IMG/VR virus record: IMGVR_UViG_3300042553_000685
Length of the DNA stretch: 64,000 bases
Strand: one strand, 5' to 3'
Source of the DNA: a virus
Below the pieces are notes generated by a model, which made no database searches, was not told where the DNA came from, and saw only the letters and a list, made by a program, of their open reading frames with translations. A program made the position numbers and the translations under genes. The stretch's first letter is position 1, and each line of letters opens with the position of its first letter. Positions 8,150 to 33,205 of the stretch are shown in pieces.

Positions 8150-8299
8150 ATGTCCCCTTATCACACTTATCTTCAATTAAATCATCAAACGATTCAACTC
8201 CGGTCCGTAGATGGGCCAGCATGTCATCTAGACCTGGATGGTCACCGCTGGTATGTTCTACCAGATGGTGACTTCGAGATCATCACTCTAATAGACTAA
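8150..8299 (+). CDS. 49-aa hypothetical protein
   Basis: Hand translation MSPYHTYLQLNHQTIQLRSVDGPACHLDLDGHRWYVLPDGDFEIITLID; strong RBS; a truncated copy lies at 9133-9252. Confidence 0.55.
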   Translation: MSPYHTYLQLNHQTIQLRSVDGPACHLDLDGHRWYVLPDGDFEIITLID

Positions 8300-8306
8300 C
8301 ACTATA

Positions 8307-8361
8307 GGGGGCTATATGCTCCCCTTTTTCCTTCTGGTGAATTTTAGTCCCAGGAGGACAC
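8307..8361 (+). promoter_or_regulatory. terminator-promoter-RBS cassette copy 7
   Basis: GGGGGCtatatGCTCCCC, TTTTTCCTTCTGGTGA, ATTTTAGT, CCCAGGAGG, ATG at 8362. Confidence 0.55.
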
Positions 8362-9120: not shown

Positions 9121-9132
9121 TTAAACATTTAT

Positions 9133-9252
9133 TCTAGGAGGTAAATTCAGCATCGGTCTGTAAATGGGCCGGCATGTCATCTAGACCTCAATGGTCATCG
9201 CTGGTATGTTGCACCAGATGGTGATTTGGAGATTATTACTCTAATAGGGTAA
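9133..9252 (+). pseudogene. 5'-truncated duplicate of the 8150..8299 gene
   Basis: Keeps CTAGGAGGTAAAT, then lacks ~55 nt including the ATG. 9152-9252 is ~85% identical to 8201-8299 and encodes ..VNGPACHLDLNGHRWYVAPDGDLEIITLIG. Confidence 0.6.
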
Positions 9253-9366
9253 TGCTATGGGCCCGTCTCTACTTCTTATTCAAGATAGAGGCGGGCCCCT
9301 CGTCTCTAAATGATAGCGCCTTAAAAAGAAGAGGAATGAAGTTCAGCACCTGAGTTCGTTAAGTAC

Positions 9367-9419
9367 GCCAGCAATTGGCCCCTTTTCTTTTAGTAGTCCT
9401 ATACACCCAAGTATACACA
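9367..9419 (+). promoter_or_regulatory. cassette copy 8 (degenerate, no SD)
   Basis: GCCAgcaaTTGGC, CCCTTTTCTTTTAGTAG, then 25 nt to ATG at 9420. Confidence 0.4.
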
Positions 9420-10157
9420 ATGAGAAACAACAACAACAACGACAACCAGGCCTCTAATCAAGCCTCTAACCAAGCCTCTAACTCCAAAAGCTACGTATTT
9501 ACCCTTAACGTAAGTCGCACTGCCAGCACTAAGTCTGGCGTTCTTGCTTACGTGCACAATGGTGCTATCAAGCGCCGCCTGGATGGGTCTAGCTACTGGC
9601 TGGAGTTCCGGCTGATATCCATTAAGAACGGGGAGGTACCTCTCACTACCTCCGATGGTCGTAGTTTATGTACGTCCGAGTTTGTAAAGCTTCTCTCTGG
9701 AGACGCTAGCGATGACGTGATAATGTCTGTAGAGTTATCTACAGATTTCGAAGACGGGTGGGATAGCTCGTGGGGATGTGTAAAAGTTAGCTTCAACGCA
9801 GAAGACCTCCGCGTTGGGCGCGAAACAGAGTACAAGGGCACAATAACCCAGTACCTTCACCTTGAAGGTGCGGAAATCCAACTTCATCGGGAAGTTGTCC
9901 GTCCGAAAATAGACCCGTCTATACTAGATGGGTTTGAAAGTATCGCAAAGCCTAACGTAGTAACTGCGGAACAGTTACATAGTAAAGCGGCCGCCCGCAA
10001 ACGCAAACGGGAGGCTGCTAAGGCTGCACGAGATGCTGCAGCAATAGTATCTAAGCCAGGTACTGTTGTTGAGTCAGTAGTAGCGTCTAATGATACTGAT
10101 ACTGATTGGGAAGTGCCGGCTGCCCTATCCGTCGACATCGACTATATACTTGACTAA
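9420..10157 (+). CDS. hypothetical protein with N-terminal Asn/Gln-Ala-Ser repeats and basic-then-acidic C-terminus (245 aa)
   Basis: Start set at ATG 9420 just after cassette; MRNNNNNDNQASNQASNQASN; C-terminal ARKRKREAAKAARDAAA then acidic tail. Confidence 0.6.
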   Translation: MRNNNNNDNQASNQASNQASNSKSYVFTLNVSRTASTKSGVLAYVHNGAIKRRLDGSSYWLEFRLISIKNGEVPLTTSDGRSLCTSEFVKLLSGDASDDVIMSVELSTDFEDGWDSSWGCVKVSFNAEDLRVGRETEYKGTITQYLHLEGAEIQLHREVVRPKIDPSILDGFESIAKPNVVTAEQLHSKAAARKRKREAAKAARDAAAIVSKPGTVVESVVASNDTDTDWEVPAALSVDIDYILD

Positions 10158-10162
10158 TAAAA

Positions 10163-10215
10163 GGGGCCCTGCTTGGGCCCCTTTTTCCTTTAGTGGCTAT
10201 ATATTACCACTAACC
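10163..10215 (+). promoter_or_regulatory. cassette copy 9
   Basis: GGGGCCCtgcttGGGCCCC hairpin, TTTTTCCTTTAGTGG, CTATATATT, ATG at 10216. Confidence 0.5.
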
Positions 10216-13200
10216 ATGAATACCATCAACTCTATCGTCTTCCAATCCAATGTTCTCGTAGCCTCTATCGGCGCCGTTATCGCAAACACTCGTGTTACTA
10301 CACGACGTGTAGGCCCTGGTCGCCGTGCTCAGCAGATAGCAAGCCGCCGCGCTAATCGCGTAGTACGCCGTCGCTCTCGTCGTATTGCGTCGGCTGGTCG
10401 TCCTATCCGCTCCTTACCTCAAAGCCAACGCCCCTGCGTTGTAAAATCGGCACGACGTACGCTACGTCGTGCCGCAGCTGCCACAGTCTTAGCCGCTCGC
10501 AAACCCGTGTTACGTAACCGTAACGTCGTAGACAAACTTATCTTACGACAACGTAAGGCCAAACCTATAATGCGCGCTGTCAGCGCAGTATTTGCGCGTC
10601 CCTCGCGTCCTACTAACACCGGCACCGGCACTAAAGCCGTTGCTACCGTAGTTAATAATGCTGCTGGTAGTATTATCGCTGCCCTCGACCAAGGGCGCCT
10701 AAACTATCGTGGCAACGGCCGCACATGTGTGGGCAAGAAGTACAAAACTAAAAACGCTAAAGCCGTTTTAGCGATAGCTAAAGCTGCTAAAGCTACTGAT
10801 AAAGCAGCACGCGTTAAACGCTGTATGAGCGTTGTAGTACCAGAATTACCAAGTGATGTACTGGCTTGCCGCATGAGAGTCGTAGGCAAACTATGCGGTG
10901 TGACCTTTGTACAAGGGGACATAGCGTCTTATTGTGACAATGTCGTTACTATACCTTCATTCGAAGATATATACGCGATAACTCACGAGCTTGTCCACCA
11001 CTGCCAAGCTCTAGGTCTTACTGAAGACCTAGATATAGCTCTGGTGTCTGAGGCCGCTATTGGCGCGGGCTCGGCTCAATGGCATGACACTAAATCGTTC
11101 TACGAAGGTACTGAGCATGAGAATGATGAATACGAAGCAGCTCTGCTTATGTACGACCCGGCGTTAGTGGCCCGCCTCTTATGCACTCACTACCTCATGA
11201 CCGCGTTTGTAGAAAGCGGGGCACCTGGTCCTGATGATACATGGATGGATGTGGTAGATAGTTTAGATCCTGCGATTTGTCGTGAAGTCGTAGGTCTCGA
11301 TGATCGCGTACTCGATTATAAAACCTATGGCGAATATGCTGAAGCCGTTGGATATGATGACACTAATACGTTATTAGACTGGGAATTTGTCTTTAACAAT
11401 AGTGTCAACAACGATAATGCTGTTGCGCTAACCATTCAAGCAATTGATGGTCTTATTGGTGCGGCGCCCGCAGCAGTAACTCCTACCCACCCGCTCTCTA
11501 ACATAGGAGCCCCTACTAAGGGGTTAGAGAGTGATAGCTCCTCTAACAATACCACCAACACTAGCACTACCATGAAGAGCATTATCGAGATGTTAATTCC
11601 TGACCCTAGTACTCTCGGTGGAGCCGTGTCTCCTAAGCAGGAGGCGCGCATTACGGGAGCTCGTAAAGAGTTAACCCGCTTGTTTGGGGCTAATAACTTC
11701 GACCTTCTGCCTGAAGGTCCGATTCTCTATGTCGTATCTGGTTACAACCGTATGTGTAAGAAGTTCCTTGCGCTTCTAGACCATCGGGTTGTTTACACCA
11801 CGGATTCTAAAATGAATCCTAAGGTCATTAACTTAGGTGTAACTAAGTCTATTCCCTATGAAGACGACAAGCATACCTATACTACTAAGACCGAATGCTT
11901 AGTTAGCATGTATAGTGAGCACTTCCTCACTAAATTAGCCACGTGGTCTGGTGATGACCTGGCCGCTCTTGTAGGCTGCCTGTGTATTAAACAACACCGT
12001 ATTGTTAGTGTTGAGGGCCCCTGTGTTGTCATCAAGGGTAATAACCGTAACACTACTTTCAACTTTAGTACAGGTACCGTCAATGACGGCCGTCAGAGTC
12101 GCATCGCTAATGAGCTAGTTAAAGTAGGAGGCAAAGACTACAGTGGTCGTGTAGCCCTTGTAGCGCTCTGTATGAAGGTAGTGTATAACGCTACTGGTGC
12201 GCGTGCTATCCTCAATGAGGTAACTAACCTATGGCGCGAGGACATCAACTACGGCGCTCAGCCTAAAGAGGGTCAATCTCTATTTGAGATTAATCGCTGT
12301 ATGTCCCGTCCTGTTGTTTTCAAGCCTTGGGATAAGGCCTTCCCGTTCCTGCAAGTGGAGAACGTTGGCCTCGCACCCAGCGATCTTGAATTGTCGCTCA
12401 AAGCCGGTGTCATAGCAGCACCTGATAAATACAATTCAAAATGGATCGCTGTAGGTAAGGGTGCCAAGGCCATGTTCCTCGGACTTAAGGATAGTAAGAT
12501 ATACTCCATCCATGACTTCAGCAAGCCCACTAAGGTATACAACCGTCCACCTAGCTCGGGTAAATACACCCGTGCTGAGGTGGTAGGTCGTCATGATAGC
12601 CTACTTCGCGTTGATTTAGGTGATGGTAGCTATAGTTGTGGTGGTGGCCTCTATCTACGCACCGCATTCACCAATAGCCGCTTTGGCTTTGGCAGTGGTG
12701 TTGCTGCTATACGCCGCGACCTTGAGTTCGAATACACCGTACCGAAGACCATTACTAAGGAGTTTCACGTACTCCGTATTCCTAGCGAAGTCCGCGCTCT
12801 TATGGCTGCTGATCTAGATGACCCTATGAGTAAACTCATGGAAGTCATCGAAGGCAAAATAGAGAAGGCAAAGGGGCAGGTCTATGCTCCTGGTAACCCT
12901 ATCATTAGCATTATGCGGGGCAAGTACTGCATAGTGAAGAACGAGACATTCGCGCAGGACATCCGCGTAATAGGCGGGACTGTCACGCGTAATGGCGTCG
13001 AGGGCCGCGCTGATAGCGTCACTATTCGACTTGAGACTGAGATGGTAGGGCGCGACCAAGCCCTCAAACTCCGCGGTCTAGGTAAGAAGCTTACCACTCT
13101 TCCCTATGACGTTGAGGGACTATCTCAACCCTGGGATATCATCCTAAATAACGAGACCACCAAGGGATGGCCCGCGCTCATAGAGATGTTCGCCATTGAG

Positions 13201-15297
13201 AAGAGAGGCTGCACCTATACTCCTGAGGGTGCGCTTCTCACCATCGATGCTACTGGTGAAGTTATTGATCTTATGACTAAGAGTAATACCTTTACTGAGT
13301 GGGCTCGAGCCAACAGTGTTAAAGAGGTCATCTCTTTTAATATGGCCCGCGACCTGTGGGATTCCATCTCCTCCGTAGTAACTAACGATGACATCAAGGT
13401 AATCGACATCGACGATACCAGCGTCCGTATCGAAGAAACAGTAGAGGTTATATACGGCTATCTGCCGTATGATATCGAGATAGCCACTCCTCGTGAGTCC
13501 GTAGCATTCTCCAAAATGACTATGGAACAGGTGGGTATTGTGGCTCTACAGAACCGCTCTTGGGGCGAAGCACTCATGGAGGAGGTTAAGTACGATAACG
13601 TCATGTCCATAGTTAGTATGATCACGTCTAAAAACTGTGCTGCTCACATTAACATCAGCACTACTGAGGGGCGTGACCATCTACGGAACATTATCGGCGT
13701 AGTTAACAACTACGTTTCTGATAGCACCCCCGGCAGTGACCGCAAACTGCTAGAGCGTTTTGCTACCATCTATCCAGATGGAGTGGATATCGTTGCCCAG
13801 AATAACGGTAATGAGGTCTCTCTTCATATCAATGGTAAGGCCCTAAGCGCGTTCGGTACCTTCTCTGGCGCCTCCGCTACTGGTATTATGCTAGACCTCT
13901 TGACACTGTTGGCCTACGTTACTGATGTAGGAATTGAAGACCAAAGCGGTTTGGATAGTAAAATCTACTCCATGACCGCTAAGGTCAGCCGCGGTTTACG
14001 CACATGGTGTAACACCATGGTTAAATCCAAAAGCATTCTGAAAAGTATGGCCCGCGCTGGCGATGTGGTCGTTGGTAAGGTCAAGACCAGCTATAGCCCC
14101 TTGCTCCATAGCTCTGATGGCGTGCCTGTAATTCTCATGCACCCCGATTGCCCTATGGTGCGTATGCTTGGCATCGAAGAAGGTCAGGTTATTGGGATAC
14201 AACGGACTCCTATGGGCTTCGTCCTATGCGGCCGCGTTAAGTTCTCTGCTACTGATGCCTTTATCGCACACTACACAATCAACCCTCTCCTATGGCACGC
14301 CGTTAACGAAGGCGATGCTGATGGTGACCAGTGCGGCGGCATTAATGCTCACAAGTATAGCATCGATGCTGAGAGTGCCCTCACTATCAATGCTAGTCTC
14401 ATGGGCATGGGCGGCTACTTCTACTGCTACGAAGCAGATGACCTGCCGTTCTTCGCCTTCATGAGTTATGAAGATAAGATGGGCAAGAAATCCCTCACTA
14501 AGTGGGATAAGCCTGTAGCTACTGCTATCGCTGTTGATAAGTATGTAAGCGATGCTGCTGAAGTGCACACGCATTATAAAGTAGCCGTAGGTGTCGGCTA
14601 CGGCATCTGCTCCGCACTTGCCTTCCAGACCTGGGATAGTATGTACCGCGCTAGCGGCGTCGATACCGACGCACTTAAAGCATGTGTTATCGCTTGGCGT
14701 TTCGTTTATGAAAGCATGGGTCTCGGGGGCTATACCCCTGAGGCTAAGATCTTCATGGCTACCTTAGTGCAAGCAGCTCGCGCCTGGGCTGCTGGCGTAT
14801 CTATGTATAAGTCGTTGCAAGACGGGTTATACTACTCTGCCAACTCCACTAAGCTTGCGGATACGGATCGCCAGGGAGGTAGTGTACCTCCTGCTCGGGT
14901 TATGGCTAACCTTATGCCTGCTAAACTAGCTAAGGAGCCCGCGGTAATCTACCATCTTATAAAGGCCCGCGCCCGTACTCTCACATACGGCGCTCTCGAA
15001 CGGGGCAACTTCGCTCGCAAGAGCCTTATCATGTCATCTGCCATATACGGAGCCTTCCGTCGTACTGGCCAGGGTCATGATCCTGTGGTTCCTATGACTC
15101 AGGATGACGCGGCCAGTTATGGCGCTGATGATATCGTCCCCGTTAGTGTGTTCGACATGGTAAGTGAGTTCCAACTCTCTAACTATGTCAAGAACCCTCA
15201 ACTCAAGCAGCTGTTGGAAATCGCAACTGCTGTACATCTCGATCTCGGTGACTACAAACTAGAACTCGCTGAAGCTGAAGATCATCCTGATTTCTAA
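10216..15297 (+). CDS. giant protein (1,693 aa): candidate single-polypeptide two-barrel (beta/beta-prime-like) RNA polymerase with Arg-rich N-terminus
   Basis: Uninterrupted 5-kb ORF. LKLRGLGKKLTTLPYDVEGLSQPWDIILNNE (13064-13155) resembles the beta motif K..GRHGNKG..MPYDENGTPVDIVLNP. QRTPMGF...INPLLWHAVNEGDADGDQCGGINAH (14200-14350) resembles beta-prime NRAPTLH...[20 protein letters not shown]. HELVH lies at 10984-10998. The first ~130 aa are extremely R/A-rich. Start moved to the ATG at 10216 after the cassette. Confidence 0.6.
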   Translation: MNTINSIVFQSNVLVASIGAVIANTRVTTRRVGPGRRAQQIASRRANRVVRRRSRRIASAGRPIRSLPQSQRPCVVKSARRTLRRAAAATVLAARKPVLRNRNVVDKLILRQRKAKPIMRAVSAVFARPSRPTNTGTGTKAVATVVNNAAGSIIAALDQGRLNYRGNGRTCVGKKYKTKNAKAVLAIAKAAKATDKAARVKRCMSVVVPELPSDVLACRMRVVGKLCGVTFVQGDIASYCDNVVTIPSFEDIYAITHELVHHCQALGLTEDLDIALVSEAAIGAGSAQWHDTKSFYEGTEHENDEYEAALLMYDPALVARLLCTHYLMTAFVESGAPGPDDTWMDVVDSLDPAICREVVGLDDRVLDYKTYGEYAEAVGYDDTNTLLDWEFVFNNSVNNDNAVALTIQAIDGLIGAAPAAVTPTHPLSNIGAPTKGLESDSSSNNTTNTSTTMKSIIEMLIPDPSTLGGAVSPKQEARITGARKELTRLFGANNFDLLPEGPILYVVSGYNRMCKKFLALLDHRVVYTTDSKMNPKVINLGVTKSIPYEDDKHTYTTKTECLVSMYSEHFLTKLATWSGDDLAALVGCLCIKQHRIVSVEGPCVVIKGNNRNTTFNFSTGTVNDGRQSRIANELVKVGGKDYSGRVALVALCMKVVYNATGARAILNEVTNLWREDINYGAQPKEGQSLFEINRCMSRPVVFKPWDKAFPFLQVENVGLAPSDLELSLKAGVIAAPDKYNSKWIAVGKGAKAMFLGLKDSKIYSIHDFSKPTKVYNRPPSSGKYTRAEVVGRHDSLLRVDLGDGSYSCGGGLYLRTAFTNSRFGFGSGVAAIRRDLEFEYTVPKTITKEFHVLRIPSEVRALMAADLDDPMSKLMEVIEGKIEKAKGQVYAPGNPIISIMRGKYCIVKNETFAQDIRVIGGTVTRNGVEGRADSVTIRLETEMVGRDQALKLRGLGKKLTTLPYDVEGLSQPWDIILNNETTKGWPALIEMFAIEKRGCTYTPEGALLTIDATGEVIDLMTKSNTFTEWARANSVKEVISFNMARDLWDSISSVVTNDDIKVIDIDDTSVRIEETVEVIYGYLPYDIEIATPRESVAFSKMTMEQVGIVALQNRSWGEALMEEVKYDNVMSIVSMITSKNCAAHINISTTEGRDHLRNIIGVVNNYVSDSTPGSDRKLLERFATIYPDGVDIVAQNNGNEVSLHINGKALSAFGTFSGASATGIMLDLLTLLAYVTDVGIEDQSGLDSKIYSMTAKVSRGLRTWCNTMVKSKSILKSMARAGDVVVGKVKTSYSPLLHSSDGVPVILMHPDCPMVRMLGIEEGQVIGIQRTPMGFVLCGRVKFSATDAFIAHYTINPLLWHAVNEGDADGDQCGGINAHKYSIDAESALTINASLMGMGGYFYCYEADDLPFFAFMSYEDKMGKKSLTKWDKPVATAIAVDKYVSDAAEVHTHYKVAVGVGYGICSALAFQTWDSMYRASGVDTDALKACVIAWRFVYESMGLGGYTPEAKIFMATLVQAARAWAAGVSMYKSLQDGLYYSANSTKLADTDRQGGSVPPARVMANLMPAKLAKEPAVIYHLIKARARTLTYGALERGNFARKSLIMSSAIYGAFRRTGQGHDPVVPMTQDDAASYGADDIVPVSVFDMVSEFQLSNYVKNPQLKQLLEIATAVHLDLGDYKLELAEAEDHPDF

Positions 15298-15304
15298 TTA
15301 CAAT

Positions 15305-15370
15305 GGGGTCATATGACCCCTGGGGCCACCTGGCCCCTTTTTCTTTTAGTGGAGCTCTTTACTCCATATG
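15305..15370 (+). promoter_or_regulatory. cassette copy 10, not followed by a protein gene
   Basis: Tandem hairpins GGGGTCatatGACCCC and GGGGCCacctGGCCCC, then TTTTTCTTTTAGTGG; only a 9-codon ORF follows. Confidence 0.5.
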
Positions 15371-15798
15371 ATAGGTAGTATCTGGTATTGCCCATGACAG
15401 CGAATGTTACTAGCGGCGGCTTATGCTCGTGACGGCGAATTCTATTAGCGGTGGCAATAAACTATCTGTTGGGTACTCCCTAAGCACCCAGCAAGAGCTG
15501 CGTTAGTTTCATTAGCCACTCCCTTTCAGAAGAGCTATTGTCGCGATAGCTACCATAGCTATATTAGCCACTCCCCAACGGAGGAGCTTATGGTACTCGA
15601 GCTGCGAAAGTAGCCAGTGCCACTCCCCAACAGAGGGGCTTGTGTCGCACTAGTCGTGATAACTACTATAGCTGCACTAGCTGCTCTAGCCACTCCGTTG
15701 GGGAGGGCCTATGGTACTCGAGCTGCGAAAGTAGTCGATACCACTCCCCAACGGAGGGATATAACCTCTAATTACTCATTATTACCTATTAGCTAGCC
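15371..15798 (+). repeat. non-coding hairpin-repeat region (candidate structured RNA or iteron origin)
   Basis: Five CCACTCC-N5-GGAGG-type modules start at 15516, 15568, 15620, 15690 and 15741. A 25-nt repeat tatggtactcgagctgcgaaagtag occurs at 15589 and 15710, each holding a GCUGC-GAAA-GUAGC hairpin. A 26-nt repeat occurs at 15395 and 15430. No ORF. Confidence 0.7.
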
Positions 15799-16485
15799 AT
15801 GAGAACACAACGCGCCGCCAAAACCACCGCAGGAACCACCGCCAAAACCACTACTACTCTATCCCCTATAGAAGCATTCAAAGCAGCGGTAGCAGAACCT
15901 AAACCACAGGAATCCAAAGCGCAACTGCTTTTCTCAATAGCGTTTACAACTAAGTTCCTTCCAGAACGCATGTGGAGCAAAATGTGTGCCGATGGAACCG
16001 TCCGGCTAATCGGCACAGTCGCGCGGACTAATAACATTACCCATCAGGGCAACCCAGTCAACAACGACCAGTTAGCTGGTCTCACAGTTGAAGTCCGGGT
16101 AACACCGGACCAATTTGAGATTATCACTGATGGCGCTGAAGACATGGTAGGAGGGGGCGTCTCTATCCTGTTTGAAGTAGGGGAGCCCAGCTTATCTGAA
16201 CTCACCGCAGCAAACGGTGAGGAAGTCAATAGCATTGTCTTCTACGCTAAGTCCTTATTAGGCATAGAAGTCAATCAGACTGCTATCGGCAGCCTAGGCT
16301 TTGAGACAAAGGAAAAGATGGATGACTGGTTCTTAGCAGCGCGGTCTCAGAATAATAATCGGCAGAAGCGCCGGCAGGAGGAACGTACTTCCCGACTGCA
16401 AGCTGCTCGTGCAGCAGCAGATGCAGCAAATAATAATAATACGGAGTGGGCGGCCCCTGCCGCAAGCACCAATCCTATGGAATAA
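15799..16485 (+). CDS. hypothetical protein (228 aa), Thr/Ala-rich N-terminus, basic C-terminal segment
   Basis: ORF track; RQKRRQEERTSRLQAARAAADAANNNN near C-terminus; no domain recognised. Confidence 0.55.
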   Translation: MRTQRAAKTTAGTTAKTTTTLSPIEAFKAAVAEPKPQESKAQLLFSIAFTTKFLPERMWSKMCADGTVRLIGTVARTNNITHQGNPVNNDQLAGLTVEVRVTPDQFEIITDGAEDMVGGGVSILFEVGEPSLSELTAANGEEVNSIVFYAKSLLGIEVNQTAIGSLGFETKEKMDDWFLAARSQNNNRQKRRQEERTSRLQAARAAADAANNNNTEWAAPAASTNPME

Positions 16486-16574
16486 GAATCAGCTGACCTT
16501 ATCGGAGGTCGGCTGATATACGCCTCTCTACCAGTAGAGAGGCGTATAAACCGTTCTACTACAGAGAGAAGGAA

Positions 16575-17585
16575 ATGAACGCTACACCACACACAATAAT
16601 ATCTAGACAGGGCGTCGAACAAAATAGAAGACAGTTTAAAGAACAACCCTTCGGGGAAGATTTGGGCAACGACATAACCTTAGAAATGGTTGCTATCCCA
16701 GGGGGAACTTTCCTGATGGGTTCATCGCCAAATGAGAAATATAGTTTTGATGATGAACACCCTCAACATCAAGTAAGTGTCCCACCCTTTTTCATGGGTA
16801 AATACCCCATCACTCAGGCTCAGTGGAAAGAGGTTGCCTCTCGCACAGATTTAAAAGTTGAAAGAGACCTTGATCTCAACCCAGCCTATTTTAAAGACCG
16901 TCCCGATAGTGATCGCCGCCCCGTAGAACAAGTCAACTGGTACGATGCCGTTGAATTTTGTGCGAGATTATCGATACTGACGGGAAGGGAATACCGACTA
17001 CCGAGTGAAGCGGAATGGGAATACGCTTGTCGTGCTGGAACTACTACCCCATTCTACTTTGGGGAAACCATTACAGGGGAATTGGCTAACTATGACGCCA
17101 GCGAAACAACTCCCGTGGGACAATTTACACCCAATGCCTTCGGACTGTACGATATGCACGGCAATGTCTGGGAATGGTGTGCTGATACTTGGCATGATAA
17201 CTATGACGGTGCGCCTAGTGACGGTAGTGTTTGGCTTGATAATAATCAAGAGGAAAATATTGATGGAAAGAGCAGATTCGGCACATATTCTGTCATGCGG
17301 GGCGGTTCTTGGTGCATACATCCGTCTTACTGCCGTTCCGCTTCCCGCAGCAGCCGCGATCGCCGCGACTACTTCAACCTCTACGGTTTTCGGGTAGTCT
17401 GCGTCGACCTTGATCGCGAGGGTGCTGATTCCCCTCGATTTTGGGATAAAGCTGATCGCTTGATGGTGGTGACGGTAGGAGGTGCAGCCCTAGGTGGATC
17501 GATTGCGGGAGTTTACGGTGCGGTTATTGGTGCGATATTAGCGGCGGGCTGCGGATGGTATATTACCTTTAGGAAAGCAAAATGA
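16575..17585 (+). CDS. FGE/SUMF1 (formylglycine-generating-enzyme, C-type-lectin-fold) domain protein with C-terminal Gly-zipper TM segment (336 aa)
   Basis: GGTFLMGS, HQVSVPPFFMGKYPITQAQW, PVEQVNWYDAVEFC, YRLPSEAEWEYACRAGT, FGLYDMHGNVWEWC, RGGSW, CRSA, GFRVV; tail GGAALGGSIAGVYGAVIGAILAAGCGW. Confidence 0.9.
   Translation: MNATPHTIISRQGVEQNRRQFKEQPFGEDLGNDITLEMVAIPGGTFLMGSSPNEKYSFDDEHPQHQVSVPPFFMGKYPITQAQWKEVASRTDLKVERDLDLNPAYFKDRPDSDRRPVEQVNWYDAVEFCARLSILTGREYRLPSEAEWEYACRAGTTTPFYFGETITGELANYDASETTPVGQFTPNAFGLYDMHGNVWEWCADTWHDNYDGAPSDGSVWLDNNQEENIDGKSRFGTYSVMRGGSWCIHPSYCRSASRSSRDRRDYFNLYGFRVVCVDLDREGADSPRFWDKADRLMVVTVGGAALGGSIAGVYGAVIGAILAAGCGWYITFRKAK
17295..17402 (+). other. DGR-variable-region-like 3' segment of FGE gene 1
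   Basis: RGGSW-CIHPSY-CRSA-S-R-SSRD-RR-DYFNLY-GFRVVC: conserved scaffold codons alternate with codons that differ among the three paralogues. Confidence 0.5.
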
Positions 17586-17624
17586 AAACTTTGTTATCAG
17601 CAATCAAATAATAGAGGTTATGTC

Positions 17625-17990
17625 ATGTTGTCATTTGAAGAGCTTCAGAGTAAAGCATTAGCAGAGAAACAATTGCTGTCATATGAAGAGTTTCAGAATC
17701 GGGTCTTAGAGGTATTTAATGCCTCTGAAGAAGAGTGCGATTTTTATGATTTCTCGCGTAGTTTCGTTGCAGAAATTAGTTACACTAATCGCCAGTGGTT
17801 ACAGTTTGTGATCAAGTATATCACAGACCCTGAAAACTGTTACTGTGGCCACTGGATTACCGTAAAAAGGTACGACAAGGCCTGTAAGAGTATTACTGAG
17901 TTATTGCCTCAAGCAATAGAAGTTCTTGCACAAAGAACAGAGGAAAGTATAAAAGAAGAAATTGCTGTTTTTAACCAATTAAAGAAGTAA
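17625..17990 (+). CDS. hypothetical protein (121 aa)
   Basis: ORF track; AT-rich host-like composition, follows FGE gene. Confidence 0.5.
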   Translation: MLSFEELQSKALAEKQLLSYEEFQNRVLEVFNASEEECDFYDFSRSFVAEISYTNRQWLQFVIKYITDPENCYCGHWITVKRYDKACKSITELLPQAIEVLAQRTEESIKEEIAVFNQLKK

Positions 17991-18004
17991 TTAGGGAGTA
18001 AAAA

Positions 18005-18190
18005 ATGAGCCTCTGCCTATCATGCGCCCGTCCTAAAGATAAAGACCCGTGTATGGGTCAATTCTCTGACGGGCATTACTATTGGGGAACTCCAGTAGTT
18101 CGGTCCGAATTGGAGAAGGTACCTTCTTGGGTACGGGATAAAGAAGTATATTCTGTTAAGGAGTGCAGCAGATGGGAAGAAAACCCTTAA
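18005..18190 (+). CDS. hypothetical protein (61 aa)
   Basis: ORF track; AGGGAG RBS 7 nt upstream. Confidence 0.45.
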   Translation: MSLCLSCARPKDKDPCMGQFSDGHYYWGTPVVRSELEKVPSWVRDKEVYSVKECSRWEENP

Positions 18191-18801
18191 GTGCCTTAAT
18201 AATATGTGCAATAACGGCACTCGGCGTAGCTGCATTCGCTGGCGTAGGATCTAACCTATCGAAGGCCTCGCCTTCCATATGTAGCGCTAATAATGACAAG
18301 GTAGTAGATAGAGTTAAGGTAATCACATCCACCGATCCCCTACTTGCCTCTAATAGGAGAGGCTGTTATGTATATATACCCTTAGATGGGCCCCCGCCTG
18401 AGATAGGCGAGCGGTTAACTATACGAGGGAGAATGGTGAATGGTGAGTTTAAGGGCACCTATAACCGTACTTATCTAGACTATGATAGTGATAGCAACCC
18501 TAGGCTTAAGAAGCGGTTCCTCAGAATAGAGGAGCCCTTACAAGAGACCGAACCTGGTTCTGGTTACTATCTGTTAGGTAACCTCAGCCTACGCGTCGAT
18601 GCGCTCGACGTGCGGGCCATCAATTATGCGTTACGACACGGCGGTGTCGTATACGCCATCATCGAATGGGACCAAGGTGTAGTTTATACTATGACCTTCG
18701 TTAACGAGACCGAGTTCTATGAGGCCATAAAACGTGCTAGATACACTACTCGCTCTTATACTAGGGAGGAGGCCCCCGCCCATACCAGTAGAGCTATGTG
18801 A
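18172..18801 (+). CDS. hypothetical secreted/membrane-anchored protein (209 aa)
   Basis: ATG at 18172 with AAGGAG upstream; N-terminal hydrophobic segment LSALIICAITALGVAAFAGV. Confidence 0.55.
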   Translation: MGRKPLSALIICAITALGVAAFAGVGSNLSKASPSICSANNDKVVDRVKVITSTDPLLASNRRGCYVYIPLDGPPPEIGERLTIRGRMVNGEFKGTYNRTYLDYDSDSNPRLKKRFLRIEEPLQETEPGSGYYLLGNLSLRVDALDVRAINYALRHGGVVYAIIEWDQGVVYTMTFVNETEFYEAIKRARYTTRSYTREEAPAHTSRAM

Positions 18802-19039
18802 TATAAAGCGCCATAATGGCGCCCACGTGACAATTAGGAAGGCCTGGGTTAAGAGCACTACATACTCTAACCCTCTACTACCCGACCATGCCTACGCCCT
18901 CCTATACGAGGACGTAGGCACTAGTAGGTGCAGTGTACTTATCCTGGCTAAAAGAATACGCAGCGGTAGGTTTATAGAAGTAACGGGTAACGTTAGTAAC
19001 GGCACGTTAATTAACGTTACCTTTAAAACATTACCTTAG
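18734..19039 (+). CDS. hypothetical protein (start uncertain)
   Basis: ORF track; 5' part overlaps previous gene, true start probably downstream of 18801. Confidence 0.35.
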   Translation: MLDTLLALILGRRPPPIPVELCDIKRHNGAHVTIRKAWVKSTTYSNPLLPDHAYALLYEDVGTSRCSVLILAKRIRSGRFIEVTGNVSNGTLINVTFKTLP

Positions 19040-19049
19040 GGTAAGTCAC

Positions 19050-20093
19050 ATGACAATCGTATTGGGGGCACTGGCCCTCATAGTATCTCTGATACCATAT
19101 CTCAGTATCGAGATTCTGTTGATGGCGCTTATGCCGCTTATTAGCGGCGATAACGCGATGGGCGTATTAGCTATAGTGATAATTGGCACTATCACCAGTG
19201 AGGCCCGCATGAGTAACCCGGCCTTCACTGGTATGAGGGTAGTTACCGCCACTAGCGGGTACGACGCATCGGCTTCGCTGTTAATACGCATCACCAGCCT
19301 AATTGGTGGCATAGTAGCCAGTCTAGGCATAGTAGTCATGGACCAATACCTCGGTGTATCTCATATGTGGATAACGCCATTAATGATGGTCATCTTCATA
19401 TTGGTGCAGTGTTGGGGCCGCGCCGAGATGGTAGGTCTAGCCGTGATAACGGCTATCTTCCTATGGTTCCTGCATAGTCAGCCCCACGCTACTACCATCC
19501 TGGGTATGGGGGGCTACGTTATGGCCAGCCTAATACGCCCCGCTAGGCGTAAGACTGAGGACTGTGAGACCAGCAATGCGCTGGGCATCGCTATATCACT
19601 AGGACCATTCCTGGCTATTGGGTTACCTGTAGCCGCAGCCGCCCCTGATGGTAAGACTGAATCCTATCTCGAAGCGGTAGTGCGGGGCATATCATTGGGA
19701 CTAGTCATGTTAGGTAATAGTAGTGGGCGAGATGCCATGAGTTCCTATCTGGCCCTAACGGATGTAGATCAGTTGAATTGGCCCGCCTTCGTCGGCGTAG
19801 TAGTGTTACTGACGCCCCTATTCTTATCAGCCTATTGGCTGACCATCTGGATGATAAGGAGTCCTATGTGGCAACGCTGGTTACACGCCGGCCCCACTCG
19901 CCTTATCAATCTAGGTGTAACGGCGGCCGCGCTGGTCGTGTTGATGGCATCGGCTCACGTTAGTATTCTATTCCTACCGGGGGCCGTATGTCTAGGACTG
20001 ATGTATATGGTAGGGGAGTTATCAGGAATAGATAAGATGCTACCCTTCCCCATACTAATAGTCGTCAGTTATATAAGCCAATGGGTCTCCTAG
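19050..20093 (+). CDS. polytopic integral membrane protein (347 aa)
   Basis: ORF track; about 8-10 hydrophobic segments along the sequence; family not recognised. Confidence 0.6.
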   Translation: MTIVLGALALIVSLIPYLSIEILLMALMPLISGDNAMGVLAIVIIGTITSEARMSNPAFTGMRVVTATSGYDASASLLIRITSLIGGIVASLGIVVMDQYLGVSHMWITPLMMVIFILVQCWGRAEMVGLAVITAIFLWFLHSQPHATTILGMGGYVMASLIRPARRKTEDCETSNALGIAISLGPFLAIGLPVAAAAPDGKTESYLEAVVRGISLGLVMLGNSSGRDAMSSYLALTDVDQLNWPAFVGVVVLLTPLFLSAYWLTIWMIRSPMWQRWLHAGPTRLINLGVTAAALVVLMASAHVSILFLPGAVCLGLMYMVGELSGIDKMLPFPILIVVSYISQWVS

Positions 20094-20194
20094 TGTAATA
20101 CTAGGCCCCAGTGGGGCACTAGGGGACATCGACTGCGGCCTAATCGGCGGCACTGGGTGTACCCATCCATTAACTACATACGCCGGAGAGCTAT

Positions 20195-20434
20195 ATGCCT
20201 ATAGAATTAGATGCGCGTCACGTAGCGTATCTATCACTGTTCATGTTCGCGGTGATCGTGCTGGTCATCACGCATAGTGTAGCGGTATTGCTAATCGTAG
20301 CATTCCTGGCCCGCGCGCTCTATCTATCGAGCTCCAAGCGGAGCAATGCGCGTATCATACTATCACCTAATGGTGTAGAGAGTCGAGTAGGCGGGAAGAG
20401 CTACTGGAAGATAGGGGAGGTAGGAAATGTCTAG
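20195..20434 (+). CDS. small membrane protein (79 aa)
   Basis: ORF track; hydrophobic stretch YLSLFMFAVIVLVITHSVAVLLIVAFLA. Confidence 0.5.
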   Translation: MPIELDARHVAYLSLFMFAVIVLVITHSVAVLLIVAFLARALYLSSSKRSNARIILSPNGVESRVGGKSYWKIGEVGNV

Positions 20435-20603
20435 CTACCCCATTCATCTATATAGTCTAGCCATTAAGCCGCGATATAAAGAACTAGTAGTTCTTGTATC
20501 CAAGGCATGTCTGGAGATGAAGAAGGCCCCCGCAGGGGGGACCAGCCGTCAAGTATGGCCATACTACGGAGCCCGCCGCGGAGAAGAGTGGCCGCACCAC
20601 TAA
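20427..20603 (+). CDS. hypothetical 58-aa protein
   Basis: Hand-found; ATG at 20427 with GGAGG 8 nt upstream, overlapping previous stop; MSSYPIHLYSLAIKPRYKELVVL... Confidence 0.35.
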   Translation: MSSYPIHLYSLAIKPRYKELVVLVSKACLEMKKAPAGGTSRQVWPYYGARRGEEWPHH

Positions 20604-20649
20604 GGGGCACCAGGTCCCGCCTTATCAATTAACCAACTAACGAGGTAAT

Positions 20650-21159
20650 ATGAAGCTCAGAATCAAATTGACACGTAGCAACAAGACCCAGCAAGTAACA
20701 TTTACTACTAGTCCTAAGAATGGCAACACGGTGCTAACTGGCACCGTGGTGGGGGCCAGTGATTATCAATTGAACGTGAATGGTAACCTCGTTGATGTCA
20801 GTGAGTTAGCCATTGGGCTGACTGTTAATCTAGTATTCAGACCACAAGATACTGATACTATAGCCAAGCACGTAGCTAATGGTTACCGTATCCATGGAAA
20901 TGGCAGTCCATTCATCACGATGGTGATTGAATGTCAAACTAAGAAGCCCGCAGCCGGGGGCAACATAATCATCATGGGGGACGACATTGAGTCAATTGAC
21001 TATGAAGCATGGAATGACGATACCTTCGTGAATGAGGACGAGTTAGATATGCTCTTCAATAAGAAGGCAGAAACTAAGGGAGCAAGTGGAGCAGCGCGTG
21101 AAGCAAGTGCTCCTACTTCAGGTGCTCCCAACTGTTTCAACCGTAAGGTAACTCTCTAA
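20650..21159 (+). CDS. hypothetical protein (169 aa)
   Basis: ORF track; GAGG RBS; no motif recognised. Confidence 0.55.
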   Translation: MKLRIKLTRSNKTQQVTFTTSPKNGNTVLTGTVVGASDYQLNVNGNLVDVSELAIGLTVNLVFRPQDTDTIAKHVANGYRIHGNGSPFITMVIECQTKKPAAGGNIIIMGDDIESIDYEAWNDDTFVNEDELDMLFNKKAETKGASGAAREASAPTSGAPNCFNRKVTL

Positions 21160-21259
21160 GAGAGACACTAATAGAGAGCTAGAGTAGCCTAGCTATAAAT
21201 TACACGGCCCGCGGCTACTAGCGGGCCAACCCCGCTCATACCAGAGGGCGCGTAATACA

Positions 21260-21670
21260 TTGAGTAAACTAAACACAGCACTAGAGGTAATAGCAGAATG
21301 GTTAGAGGAGTATGGCCCCGCCCATCTCCCCATTCTAATGCGATACGCCTTACTAGAGAGATACACATTAACGAAGGCCCGAGAGATGGGCCACGATATT
21401 AATATATGTACAACAGCGTTCAAGAGCCTATGGATAGAGGCCAATGATGAGGAGGTGCAGATCGCGATATTACTGGGGAGGTATCTAGAGGGAAGAGGAA
21501 GAGTAGAATACTTCCGAGAGAGGCCCGAGTTAATAGAGGCGATGGGCTACTTCATGGCCCTAGGAGACCACGAGTTTTACAGAGGACTAGACAATAAGAC
21601 AATAAATGCGGCTAGAGAGAGAGCCGCGCGGGCAAGCAGTACTAGACTAAACAAATCATATGCAAACTAA
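21260..21670 (+). CDS. hypothetical protein (136 aa, TTG start)
   Basis: ORF track; first codon is TTG; antisense ORF 21193..21444 judged spurious. Confidence 0.45.
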   Translation: MSKLNTALEVIAEWLEEYGPAHLPILMRYALLERYTLTKAREMGHDINICTTAFKSLWIEANDEEVQIAILLGRYLEGRGRVEYFRERPELIEAMGYFMALGDHEFYRGLDNKTINAARERAARASSTRLNKSYAN

Positions 21671-21905
21671 ATACACAATACGAGCAAAGGATGGTAGGTA
21701 CCTCTCTCCCATTACTAGAGAGGAAGCAGAGGAGTTACTGAAGAGCGGTCTAATTAAGAAGGATAGCGAGGACGGGTACATAATGGTAGCAGACAGCGCG
21801 TTTGCCGTCAGTCAATACGTGATATATGATTGCCAGCACTTATGTGATGATTTAATAAATAATAATAAGACAACAGCTACCGCCGAACAGCCCCGCTCCT
21901 TATAA
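21660..21905 (+). CDS. hypothetical protein (81 aa)
   Basis: ORF track; 11-nt overlap with previous gene. Confidence 0.45.
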   Translation: MQTKYTIRAKDGRYLSPITREEAEELLKSGLIKKDSEDGYIMVADSAFAVSQYVIYDCQHLCDDLINNNKTTATAEQPRSL

Positions 21906-21985
21906 GTAAACAGCCCCTATAAGGGATAGAGCCGAGAGGTAGAGGGGCCCGTCGTAATTGTGAGTACAGCCTCATAGCAACAGCG

Positions 21986-22312
21986 TCACACGTAGGCGGC
22001 CTGCTCACTCCTGAAGATATCAAGTAGGGGATCGATAGTAGATCTAAGGCCAGCCATGAGATGGCGAGCTGCATCAGTAGGTAGGCCCCGCCACCAGCGT
22101 TGCACCTTCTCCTGAGCCCAATCGAGGCCCAATCGCGTCATAGTGCACTGTAGTGTGCGCTCAAGCAGGCGGGTGAACTGAGCGAGGGGGCGTATATCAC
22201 CACTATCGGTACCGTAGTGTGCTACCCACTGAGAGGGGTCAGCGATAACCTCAGGATTCTGAGTAGCGTAGGCCAGGAGTTTATTCTCGATGGGGTTAAA
22301 TACAGAAGCCAA
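21986..22312 (-). CDS. hypothetical protein, possibly 5'-truncated by the adjacent IS (108 aa)
   Basis: ORF begins with TTG directly at the compositional break to the IS607-type element. Confidence 0.4.
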   Translation of the reverse strand: MASVFNPIENKLLAYATQNPEVIADPSQWVAHYGTDSGDIRPLAQFTRLLERTLQCTMTRLGLDWAQEKVQRWWRGLPTDAARHLMAGLRSTIDPLLDIFRSEQAAYV

Positions 22313-22365
22313 AAACCTAACTAATATTATCCAAAATTACTCATGACTTGTGCTATAATAGTTCT

Positions 22366-22974
22366 ATGAGTAAGTTAACCATATCGGAAGCCGCTAAATT
22401 GAAAGGTGTAAGCGTATCGACGTTAAGGCGTTGGGAGTCTGAAGGTAAACTAATTCCAGAACGGACTGCTAATGGGCATCGTCGTTATACAATTTCTCAG
22501 TTGCTTGGTTTAAAAGAGAATCTCTCTTATACTGTTGGCTATTGCCGTGTTTCTAGTCATGACCAAAAGAAGGATTTAGAACGTCAAAAAGAAGTTGTCG
22601 AACTGTTTTGCGCTCAAAACGGTTGGCAAGTTGAAATTATAGACGACCTAGGTTCAGGACTTAACTACAACAAAAAAGGATTAAAGCGATTAATTCGGTT
22701 GATTGTTGATAGTAAAGTAGAGAGATTAGTCTTAACTCATAAGGATAGATTACTTAGATTTGGTAGTGAATTAATCTTTAGTCTGTGTGAGCAATTCGGG
22801 ACTGAAGTTGTCATTATTAATCGAACTGAAGACAGTACATTTGAGGAGGATTTAGCACAAGATGTCTTAGAGATTATTACGGTATTTTCCGCTAGATTGT
22901 ATGGCTCTAGAAGCCATAAAAATAGAAAAATCGTAGAGGAGTTAAGAGACGTTGCTACTAGGATTCAAGACTGA
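22366..22974 (+). CDS. tnpA: IS607-type transposase TnpA (MerR-like HTH + serine recombinase)
   Basis: LTISEAAKLKGVSVSTLRRWESEGKL (HTH) and YCRVSSHDQKKDLERQ (catalytic Ser motif); start at ATG 22366. Confidence 0.9.
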   Translation: MSKLTISEAAKLKGVSVSTLRRWESEGKLIPERTANGHRRYTISQLLGLKENLSYTVGYCRVSSHDQKKDLERQKEVVELFCAQNGWQVEIIDDLGSGLNYNKKGLKRLIRLIVDSKVERLVLTHKDRLLRFGSELIFSLCEQFGTEVVIINRTEDSTFEEDLAQDVLEIITVFSARLYGSRSHKNRKIVEELRDVATRIQD

Positions 22975-24124
22975 GTTAAAACTAAATAATCAACAACGCT
23001 CATTATTAGCCCAACACGCAGGAACCGCACGTCATGCTTGGAATTGGGGTTTGGCTTTAACCAAGCAAATTTTAGACCATAATCAAGCTAACCCTGATGA
23101 AAAAATCAAGTTTCCTACGGCTATTGACCTTCACAAATGGTTGGTAGCATTGGTAAAATCAGAGCATGATTGGTATTATCAAGTGTCTAAATGCGCCCCC
23201 CAATGGGCGTTAAGAGCTTTATCCGATGCTTGGAAAAGATGCTTCAAGAAGATAGCCAAACCACCAAATTTCAAGAAGAAAGGTAAACAGGATAGTTTCA
23301 CTTTAGATGGGAGCATTAAAGTTGCTCATCAAAAGATAAAAGTTCCTGTAATTGGTTGGTTAAAAACTTACGAGCGGCTACCCTATGGATACCAGCCAAA
23401 ATCTGTCACTATTAGTAAAAAAGCTAATAGGTGGTTTATTAGTTTTAAGATGGAAGTTGAACAGCAAACAACCAATAAAACTCATGATGTAGTTGGTTGT
23501 GATCTGGGAATTAAATCTTTAGCTACTTTATCGACAGGGGAGACGTTTGAAGGCTCTAAAAGTTATCGTAAATACGAAAAACAATTAGCCAGACTTCAAT
23601 ACTTGAACCGACATAAGGTAAAAGGTTCAAATAATTGGAACAAAGCCCAACGGCAAATAGCTAAACTTCATTTTAAAATAGCTAATATCCGTAAAGATAC
23701 GTTACATAAACTCACCACTTATTTAGCCAAGAACCACGGCCAGATAGTAATTGAGGATTTAAATGTGTCTGGGATGATGGCTAATCACAAATTAGCTAAA
23801 GCCGTTCAGGATATGGGGTTTTACGAGTTCCGAAGACAACTTGATTATAAAACTCAGTTGTATGGTTCGGAATTAATCATAGCCGATAGGTGGTTTCCTA
23901 GTAGTAAAACCTGTTTTAATTGTGGGTACAAGAAAGAGTCTCTATCTTTAACTGAAAGAGTTTTTGAGTGTGAACAATGCCATGCAGTTTGCGGTCGAGA
24001 CTTGAACGCTAGTCTAAATCTAGCTTCTTTGGCGGTGAGTTCCACCGTGTCAGCTTGTGGAGTAGATAGTGCCGACACTACTACAGTGAAGCAGGAAGTT
24101 AACGTCAAATTTGCTCATGAGTAG
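22952..24124 (+). CDS. tnpB: TnpB (OrfB_IS605, RuvC-like + zinc ribbon) RNA-guided nuclease family
   Basis: GCDLGIKSLATLS, IVIEDLNVSGM, CFNCGYKKESLSLTERVFECEQCHAVCGRDLNASLNL; TTG start overlapping tnpA end. Confidence 0.9.
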   Translation: MLLGFKTELKLNNQQRSLLAQHAGTARHAWNWGLALTKQILDHNQANPDEKIKFPTAIDLHKWLVALVKSEHDWYYQVSKCAPQWALRALSDAWKRCFKKIAKPPNFKKKGKQDSFTLDGSIKVAHQKIKVPVIGWLKTYERLPYGYQPKSVTISKKANRWFISFKMEVEQQTTNKTHDVVGCDLGIKSLATLSTGETFEGSKSYRKYEKQLARLQYLNRHKVKGSNNWNKAQRQIAKLHFKIANIRKDTLHKLTTYLAKNHGQIVIEDLNVSGMMANHKLAKAVQDMGFYEFRRQLDYKTQLYGSELIIADRWFPSSKTCFNCGYKKESLSLTERVFECEQCHAVCGRDLNASLNLASLAVSSTVSACGVDSADTTTVKQEVNVKFAHE

Positions 24125-33136: not shown

Positions 33137-33153
33137 TTACTAATCATTTAATT

Positions 33154-33180
33154 ATCAGTTATCAGTTATCAGTTATTAGT
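33154..33180. repeat. STRR-like heptamer tandem repeat (ATCAGTT)3+
   Basis: atcagtt x3 perfect at 33154-33174, then a degenerate unit; intergenic. Confidence 0.8.
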
Positions 33181-33205
33181 GTTCACTCATTATTTAGGAG
33201 TAAAA

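Follow-up and report, generated by a model that had tools for sequence, protein, structure and literature searches.

The 64,000-nt viral contig IMGVR_UViG_3300042553_000685 from the IMG/VR database, referred to below as the window, contains three genes (FGE1, FGE2 and FGE3) encoding proteins with a domain of the formylglycine-generating enzyme (FGE) type. Comparison with bacterial sequences showed directly that the 3′ ends of these genes are genuine variable regions (VRs) of a diversity-generating retroelement (DGR), because matching template repeats (TRs) exist and the differences between VRs and TRs fall on template adenines. The TRs, a reverse transcriptase (RT) and a bAvd protein were found in Microcystis and not in the phage, and the sequence data make it probable that the host DGR rewrites the phage genes in trans. 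Positions 15000-22000 of the window matched nine Fukuivirus records, among them MaMV-CH02 (91.8% identity, 77% coverage) and Ma-LMM01 (82.8%, 75%). These similarities identify the window as part of a Fukuivirus, namely a Microcystis myophage of the Ma-LMM01/MaMV type with a genome of ~160-180 kb.

Variable Regions and Template Repeats

When the VR of FGE2 was compared with the TR of locus L235, 20 of 30 template adenines were found to be changed together with 2 of 78 other bases (Fisher p = 1.9e-12); against the TR of the Microcystis plasmid p1FD4 (L241), these values were 19/28 and 2/72. The VR of FGE1, which belongs to the 95 class, differed from TR-95 of the Microcystis DGR contig L238 at 19/30 adenines and 4/75 other bases (p = 7.8e-10). 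Two of the four non-adenine mismatches are located in the terminal GTAGTCTG, and exclusion of the last 6 nt leaves 2/67. For the VR of FGE3 and TR-98a (the TR of L234), 18/30 adenines and 6/78 other bases were changed (p = 3.6e-8); a second count gave 18/30 and 6/70. Mutagenesis confined to adenines had been proposed in the first-pass annotation, which was made from the window sequence alone, and it agrees with the position of the VR–TR differences in the window (Fisher p from 1.9e-12 to 3.6e-8).

The FGE1 orthologues on the phage contigs L099, L100 and L108 were changed at 12-13 of 28 adenines of the p1FD4 TR and at none of its 72 other bases. When 67 unique phage VRs were pooled and each was compared with its best TR, 57% of the adenine sites were changed vs. 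8.3% of the others. Non-adenine mismatches were absent from 6 of the 67 VRs and numbered two or fewer in 24, and some VRs were clearly decayed (10-23 such mismatches). Thus, TRs that are nearly identical to the VRs and differ from them at template adenines were found, and they are located on host DNA, not on phage DNA. These comparisons show the phage VRs to be adenine-mutagenized copies of TRs that are carried by Microcystis replicons together with RT and Avd.

The three C-termini had previously been aligned as an invariant scaffold separated by wholly different blocks. This alignment was reproduced: RGGSW/CRSA/R/RR/GFRVVC is invariant and the intervening blocks are unrelated. The cassette of FGE1, first placed near 17295-17402, runs from 17297 to 17401. 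The motif GGNTTYCGNGTNGTNTG occurs in three copies in the window vs. 0.06 expected by chance, and FGE1 and FGE2 have a protein identity of only 41% but a cassette DNA identity of 77%, including the same choice among six arginine codons. The variable codons are NNC or NNT, the third position being the conserved one.

Further cassettes were collected from IMG/VR with the gapped pattern GGCGGTTCYTGG N60-90 GGTTTTCGGGT, which gave 101 stretches with 127 cassettes, 66 of them unique. In 41 unique cassettes of the 98-nt class from related phage contigs, all four bases were present at positions 1 and 2 of every variable codon, and position 3 was C or T in 83-98% of the sequences per codon. The fixed third positions noticed initially in the three window genes therefore hold and can be generalized. 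In 46 unique phage cassettes of one length class, entropy was 1.68 bits at template-adenine sites vs. 0.41 elsewhere (Mann–Whitney p = 5e-15). The form of the template, GGSW-NNNPNN-CRSA-N-R-NNNN-RR-DN-R-NNNN-GFR, was predicted from codon counts before any TR was found, and the phage cassettes carry the AAC/AAT codon signature. The VRs lie at the 3′ end of the open reading frame within the C-type-lectin/FGE fold, and the PF03781 match spans each of the three proteins to within a few residues of GFRVVC. FGE1 is the exception to the 3′-terminal position of the VR, since 61 more codons follow it.

DGR of Microcystis

The scaffold pattern was found in at least 120 stretches of bacterial genomes, mostly of cyanobacteria, and many Microcystis chromosomes contained several VR genes each. 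Many non-Microcystis bacterial loci had classic VR and TR pairs ~200-300 nt apart. Exact DNA anchors of the cassette were also present in distant phyla (L112-L231), often as VR and TR pairs, for example in Nitrosomonas (L192), Zoogloea (L176), Competibacteraceae (L129, L145) and Planctomycetota (L154, L155), which suggests that one DGR lineage and its template have spread widely by horizontal transfer.

A metagenome-assembled genome of Microcystis (L169:201-298) contained one adenine-rich copy of the scaffold, GGSWYNNPNNCRSAYRNNNNRRDNRNNNNGFR, which is close to the predicted template. A TR probe applied to metagenome contigs revealed seven loci in which the RT gene is immediately followed by the TR and FGE targets are located on either side. 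Pfam analysis of the TR loci confirmed RVT_1 (PF00078) and bAvd (PF22296). The host targets are FGE domains fused to CHAT and NB-ARC/NACHT or to a caspase domain, and the flanking genes include those of PBP1 and Dam. The RT contains the motif IGNLTSQ...YVDD and falls into a 90% cluster named 'MULTISPECIES: RNA-directed DNA polymerase [Microcystis]', to which M. aeruginosa FD4 and M. panniformis belong. A second RT lineage (360 aa, 74% identical) is named from Microcystis sp. LE18-22.4A.

A cassette with the order VMAP/MoxR, FGE target, Avd, PIN, RT, TR and FGE311 is found on p1FD4, a circular plasmid of 43.6 kb in M. aeruginosa FD4, and its Avd is labeled by NCBI as 'diversity-generating retroelement protein Avd'. 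More generally, the DGR cassette of Microcystis has the layout target-bAvd-RT-TR and is located on plasmids such as p1FD4 and on chromosomes. The search of host genomes for a TR beside a DGR-clade RT and avd, which had been recommended as a check, was thus positive for both plasmid and chromosomal cassettes. In addition, TRs of a 101 class and a TR-95 variant ending in GTAGTCTGC are predicted to exist in Microcystis.

Some other features of these loci were observed, two of them on p1FD4 (L248; 8834-11319 and 25692-36198). The complete DGR of this plasmid adjoins genes for MoxR, a protein with an SAV_2336-N domain and a TIR protein, and such surroundings are those of a conflict system. The plasmid also contains a second FGE target with Avd, with no adjacent RT and with flanking insertion sequence (IS) elements. 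The VR of one host target (L246:4531-4639) is 109 nt long instead of 108 nt, and the frameshift destroys GFRVVC, so this target is naturally inactivated. Metagenome contigs with RT and TR were considered as possibly viral and this was rejected: L232 is flanked by PBP1 and Dam, L234 has its TR in the same position as a Microcystis contig of a metagenome-assembled genome and contains host-type genes, and L241 is the plasmid p1FD4 with ParA, DnaB, toxin–antitoxin and IS genes.

Search for DGR Components in Phages

The initial statement that the window contains no TR, Avd or RT was upheld. A BLASTN search (word size 7) for an extra copy of the scaffold in the window and in the complete genomes of Ma-LMM01 and MaMV-CH02 revealed only the VRs and one FGE pseudogene fragment. 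A TBLASTN search with the Microcystis DGR RT gave no hit at E ≤ 10 in these three sequences, and in the 101 viral loci its hits did not exceed chance level (E 6-8, 27% identity); no Avd homologue was found by TBLASTN in any of them. Short 'Avd_L232' hits were rejected as phage Avd because they are out-of-frame overlaps with VRs. A regular expression for the DGR RT motif gave zero matches in the window, the two complete relatives and the 101 viral loci, and found 12 RTs in bacterial loci as a positive control. No RT is annotated in the complete Ma-LMM01 and MaMV-CH02 genomes. Neither an RT encoded with the target nor an Avd was therefore found in the phage, and both are present in the host.

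A TR-specific probe had 0 matches among the 2.9 million contigs of IMG/VR, where the nearest RT was 47% identical. The RT was matched by 172 phage records, and the ten commonest organism names among them did not include Microcystis. The 127 viral scaffold matches included no adenine-rich copy. AAY-rich stretches in 1.3 Mb of phage loci were rejected as TRs, as they are Asn/Gln-rich coding regions. One open reading frame of the window (9375-10157) has such an Asn/Gln-rich low-complexity start (MRNNNNNDNQASNQASNQ...) and appeared as AAY-rich in the TR scan; it is coding and unrelated to DGRs. A decayed extra FGE fragment with a partial VR scaffold is located upstream of gp037 in Ma-LMM01 (L003; 28962-29141), and it was rejected as a TR (24% A).

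Cassette Turnover in Related Phages

Over the 400 nt that precede VR1, the contigs L029, L099 and L108 show 100% identity with the window, and L100, L090 and L109 show 99.0-99.8%; over the 300 nt downstream of VR1, identity is 95-99% across the six and 97-99% for L029, L099 and L108. The VR1 alleles of these six relatives differ from that of the window and from each other, and they belong to the 98-nt class vs. the 95-nt class of the window. L099 is collinear with window positions 8214-21989 at 95% identity, and the possibility that L099, L100 and L108 are host DNA was rejected, given collinearity with the window over 12-14 kb. When FGE1 without its VR was used in a protein search, many 90%-identity clusters were obtained (P0174-P0188), in which bodies with 93-100% identity carry at least 10 different VRs of three length classes; the VR allele of the window is found in cluster P0182. 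These alignments show cassette replacement between near-identical phages. Cassettes of at least two host TR lineages have therefore reached one and the same phage locus. Note that the fully identical block (window 16897-17296) is shared with L029, L099 and L108, contigs that are otherwise only ~94-96% identical; a local sweep, or recombination around the body of FGE1, could explain this.

Boundaries of the Variable Regions

Past the cassette, host VRs share 17 nt more with the TR (GTATTCGGGAGAACTCT), followed by a conserved CT-rich tract (CCCTTTTTCCTTTTTCCCC...). This extended homology was seen, among others, at L241:3402-3471, L241:8272-8341 and L238:2532-2601. The 3′ homology and the CT-rich tract may be a target-recognition feature of this DGR clade. 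In FGE1 and FGE2, homology with the TR stops at GTAGTCTG(C/T), and the homology arms are only ~16 nt on the 5′ side and ~17 nt on the 3′ side; FGE3 keeps a host-like remnant. No significant folding was found downstream of the phage or host VRs (z-scores from -0.98 to +1.89). The 3′ boundary of the initiation of mutagenic homing (IMH) type with a hairpin or cruciform, known from phage BPP-1, was not detected at the phage VRs, and the GC-rich IMH-like end and downstream hairpin that had been suggested as a further check were not found by the inverted-repeat and folding search.

Origin of the Phage Variable Regions

The following mechanism can be proposed. In an infected DGR-positive cell, the host RT–Avd complex would copy TR RNA into adenine-mutagenized cDNA, and this cDNA would replace the homologous cassette in replicating phage DNA. 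The sole guide would be the short non-adenine arms common with the TR, GCGGGGCGGTTCYTGG on the 5′ side and GGTTTTCGGGTAGTCTG on the 3′ side; with such arms, the cDNA might be integrated by annealing at replication forks or by phage recombination functions. The same phage locus could be rewritten by more than one host DGR lineage, the TR classes being 95, 98 and probably 101 nt. We infer from the replaced cassettes and their templates that host DGR cDNA retrohomes into phage DNA during infection.

Several observations weigh against this mechanism. The case for mutagenesis of phage DNA is made by sequence comparison only. FGE1 and FGE2 lack both the GTATTCGGGAGAACTCT homology and the CT-rich tract found after every host VR, and no inverted repeat was found within 115 nt after any VR, of phage or host; therefore, the cis signals that homing in Bordetella phage BPP-1 is known to need are not evident. 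Each window VR has 2-6 non-adenine mismatches, so its exact last template is not among the sampled TRs. The VR of FGE2 is identical in L096, a phage with ~5% divergence, and five MaMV isolates give the same TBLASTN identity values for the FGE2-type gene; rewriting is therefore infrequent at some loci. The upstream identity of 86% beside the identical VR2 of L096 was dismissed as an artefact of the divergent N-terminal region, since the FGE domain, VR and downstream flank are 95.6% identical. Some pairs of variants agree in the 3′ half of the cassette but not in the 5′ half, which fits recombination better than 3′-anchored homing. The sample of host sequences is small, and a phage-borne DGR outside the 64-kb window is excluded only by analogy with relatives.

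The main rival is short-tract recombination with host VR genes: only host genes would be mutagenized by the host DGR, and cassettes would reach the phage by gene capture or short-tract homologous recombination with no cDNA homing. In its favour, paralogous VR genes built on this DNA scaffold are numerous on Microcystis chromosomes, the FGE bodies of the phages share 57-79% identity with genes of the host, the phages form a mosaic in both FGE copy number and gene bodies, and both the missing extended 3′ homology and the recombinant-looking VR variants would be explained. However, no identical pair was seen between 79 phage VRs and 60 Microcystis VRs, the nearest pair differing at 10 positions, and the replaced tract is exactly the TR-homologous cassette, with the upstream 400 nt remaining 100% identical. 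In addition, several phage VRs can be derived perfectly from a TR by changes at adenines alone, and recombination would have arms of only ~16-18 nt. We regard this explanation as rather unlikely. The first-pass annotation had also allowed for fossil targets, that is, genes and VRs acquired once, with old diversity and cassettes that now drift. This applies in part at most. The six non-adenine mismatches of FGE3, the many phage VRs with 5-23 mismatches and non-NNC codons (e.g., GGSWYYDPKICRSANRD(K/R)IIP..., conserved across many contigs), the decayed copy in the siphophage Mic1 and the absence of a DGR RT from NIES-843, the host strain lineage of LMM01 (PMC8934634), are in line with it. As a general account, it is very unlikely, as cassette and length class are replaced between phages with 99-100% identical flanks (the turnover at FGE1), some VRs have zero non-adenine mismatches, and third positions are fixed while positions 1 and 2 are saturated.

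As to the location of the DGR, the annotation had named both the host and another part of the phage genome; the former is supported by the RT, Avd and TR of Microcystis, and the latter is not. A DGR of the phage's own, with RT, Avd and TR, might lie in the ~100 kb or more of its genome outside the window, given that phage-encoded DGRs are common in general and that 172 phage records match the RT. It is most unlikely, since no RT, Avd or TR was found in the two complete relatives, Microcystis is absent from the ten commonest names of those 172 records, IMG/VR yielded no TR match and no close RT, and 0 of the 127 viral scaffold matches were adenine-rich. Ordinary diversifying selection on a binding surface, with no retroelement, can be regarded as already refuted by the TR match. 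An FGE/lectin fold tolerates variation in the loop region, but here the normal evolutionary pattern is reversed, with conservation strongest at third codon positions and variation strongest at positions 1 and 2; the variable sites are the adenines of an independently found template, and synonymous sites of scaffold codons are identical between paralogues with 41% protein identity. Rewriting of the phage genes by the host DGR is thus the reading that we prefer.

FGE Genes and Their Surroundings

The features of the window are listed in Table 1. The orthologues of FGE1 are gp062 of Ma-LMM01 and 73L of MaMV-CH02 (78% identity), which have the same scaffold as FGE1 and different variable residues. 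FGE2 is related to gp037 of Ma-LMM01. FGE3 is 57% identical to the free-standing FGE gene adjoining the host TR (aligned with L241:7377-8309 and L234:476-1423). The C-terminal extension of FGE1 after the VR contains a hydrophobic Gly-rich helix, LGGSIAGVYGAVIGAILAA (Kyte–Doolittle maximum of 1.81 over 19 residues), and is not present in the LMM01 and CH02 orthologues.

Table 1. Positions of the FGE genes, their variable regions and adjoining features in the window.
Feature	Position	Strand	Description
FGE1	16575-17585	+	336 aa; FGE-sulfatase/C-type-lectin fold; Pfam PF03781, E 9e-56
FGE2	32090-33136	+	348 aa; N-terminal extension of ~170 aa, then FGE domain; PF03781, E 1.9e-36
FGE3	40574-41461	+	295 aa; FGE domain; PF03781, E 6.5e-59
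VR1	17297-17401	+	105 nt, 95-nt class between anchors; GCGGGGCGG...GGTTTTCGGGTAGTCTG
VR2	33019-33126	+	108 nt, 98-nt class
VR3	41332-41439	+	108 nt, 98-nt class; 3′ end GGTTTTCGGGTGGTGTG, the same as in TR-98a and TR-95
C-terminal extension of FGE1 after VR1	17402-17585	+	61 codons, including a Cys codon straddling the VR end
Host-like 3′ flank of VR3	41440-41461	+	CAGTGCTGAAAGGACTCTGTAG; compare GGTGCTGGGAGGACTCTGTAA in host L238

The number of FGE copies per phage is two in Ma-LMM01, three in the window, four in MaMV-CH02 and four to six, in tandem, in the IMG/VR contigs L031, L032 and L058. The gene gp061/72L, which is located next to the FGE1 orthologue in Ma-LMM01 and MaMV-CH02, is missing in the window (17402-17990; L002:3423-3887). 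Residues ~30-55 of gp061 (INATPHVITIVSKQGVQQDSKKQF) resemble the N-terminus of FGE1 in the window (MNATPHTIISRQGVEQNRRQF), and this likeness suggests a local rearrangement. A short run of ATCAGTT heptamer repeats (~33150-33185) was found directly 3′ of the stop codon of FGE2. An IS607-type element is located at positions 22348-24124, where the gene of a serine recombinase with MerR-HTH and resolvase domains (22348-22974) overlaps that of TnpB (22952-24124). This TnpB consists of OrfB_IS605 and Cas12f-like TNB domains, and similar transposase pairs occur elsewhere in the genome of Ma-LMM01. The unrelated Microcystis siphophage Mic1 contains an FGE-only gene, Mic1_45 (L251:1123-1698), annotated as 'serine/threonine kinase', with the scaffold RGGSF...CRSA.R...GFRIVC; given its non-NNC codons, its cassette is probably a decayed VR.

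Possible Function of the Phage FGE Proteins

The phage FGE proteins are lectin-fold modules that lack the effector parts (NTPase, caspase or TIR) present in their host homologues, and they are homologous to the DGR-diversified ends of the host MoxR/VMAP, NACHT/CHAT, caspase and TIR proteins. The best PDB sequence matches are PvdO 5HHA (E 4e-40) and FGE 6S07. The first position after GGSW is hypervariable among the orthologues (C, G, Y, A, V, F or S). This codon presumably corresponds to the first of the two paired catalytic cysteines of human FGE, and an enzymatic FGE role of the phage proteins is therefore unlikely. The GenBank label 'kinase' of gp062 and gp037 reflects similarity only to the sensor end of kinase–FGE fusions.

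Fusion targets of the host type belong to a class that has been proposed to act as DGR-diversified antigen sensors of conflict systems (PMC10907252). In Ma-LMM01, gp062, the orthologue of FGE1, is one of 10 early, host-takeover genes, and gp037, of the FGE2 type, belongs to a separate small expression cluster (PMC5780444). Since the lectin modules have no effector parts, the host homologues are conflict sensors and the FGE1 orthologue is early, one may speculate on a binding role in host takeover or anti-defence, for example as a sensor decoy. It is conceivable, though doubtful, that the lytic cyanophage keeps an early-expressed lectin-fold family of 'sensor-only' proteins, with binding sites continually re-randomized by the DGR of each host it infects, as decoys or antagonists of the DGR-diversified sensors of the host. 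In that case, both sides of the host–virus conflict would take their variation from one retroelement.

Significance and Comparison with Known Systems

DGRs are regarded as self-contained, each element diversifying genes of the genome in which it resides. Trans-acting DGRs within one genome and phage-encoded DGRs are already known, and templating from host to phage, if the sequence comparisons are read correctly, would be new. No description of Microcystis DGRs, of cyanophage DGRs or of a cellular DGR that templates phage VRs was found in the searchable literature. If the proposed mechanism is true, the target and the machinery belong to two organisms in conflict. Lytic phages could gain targeted hypervariation without the cost of an RT, and such targets would systematically be overlooked in DGR surveys that accept a target only with an RT on its contig. 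The disputed function of cyanobacterial DGR targets (regulation vs. immunity) would also become testable: the occurrence of sensor-domain homologues in phages, including an early takeover gene in the family, points to a role in conflict. Blooms of Microcystis and phages of the Ma-LMM01 type are ecologically important and already in culture.

The closest known systems are the remote-target DGRs of cyanobacteria and the clade-5 DGRs by which putative antigen sensors are diversified (Vallota-Eastman 2020, PMC7517822; Dore 2024, PMC10907252), which have the same RT type, bAvd, AAC/AAT-rich TRs and a C-terminal VR in the FGE/CLec domain with RGGSW...CRSA...GFRVVC. The RT of Microcystis shares 70-87% identity with RTs that are named from Nostoc, Crocosphaera and Floridanema, and, as in Microcystis, targets of cyanobacterial/clade-5 DGRs are fused to NACHT/CHAT, caspase, MoxR/VMAP and TIR domains. 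In these systems, one TR acts in trans on several remote VRs and matches them at all non-adenine sites (PMC7517822, PMC10907252); neither paper names Microcystis among the carriers of DGRs. The remote targets described so far are located in the same cellular genome, whereas those considered here are located in the genome of an infecting virus, are effector-less and include one early gene.

Like the Mtd tropism-switching system of Bordetella phage BPP-1, the phage FGE genes have a 3′ VR, mutagenized at adenines, in a gene for a binding protein with the C-type-lectin fold. However, the RT, Avd and TR of BPP-1 are the phage's own and lie next to the target, and this target is a late tail-fibre receptor-binding protein, whereas the orthologue of FGE1 is an early gene. 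The VR of BPP-1 ends in a GC-rich IMH, after which a hairpin follows, and neither a hairpin nor an extended IMH was detected at the phage FGE VRs. The formylglycine-generating enzymes and PvdO share the PF03781 domain with the phage FGEs, in which the position of the first Cys is hypervariable. TvpA of Treponema denticola (PDB 2Y3C), to which the first-pass annotation compared the window genes, is likewise a protein with an FGE-type C-type-lectin fold and a C-terminal DGR VR, and this comparison stands at the sequence level (residues 136-276 of FGE1, E 3e-20). Unlike the phage FGEs, TvpA is a lipoprotein on the surface of a cell, and the DGR that acts on it in cis is its own.

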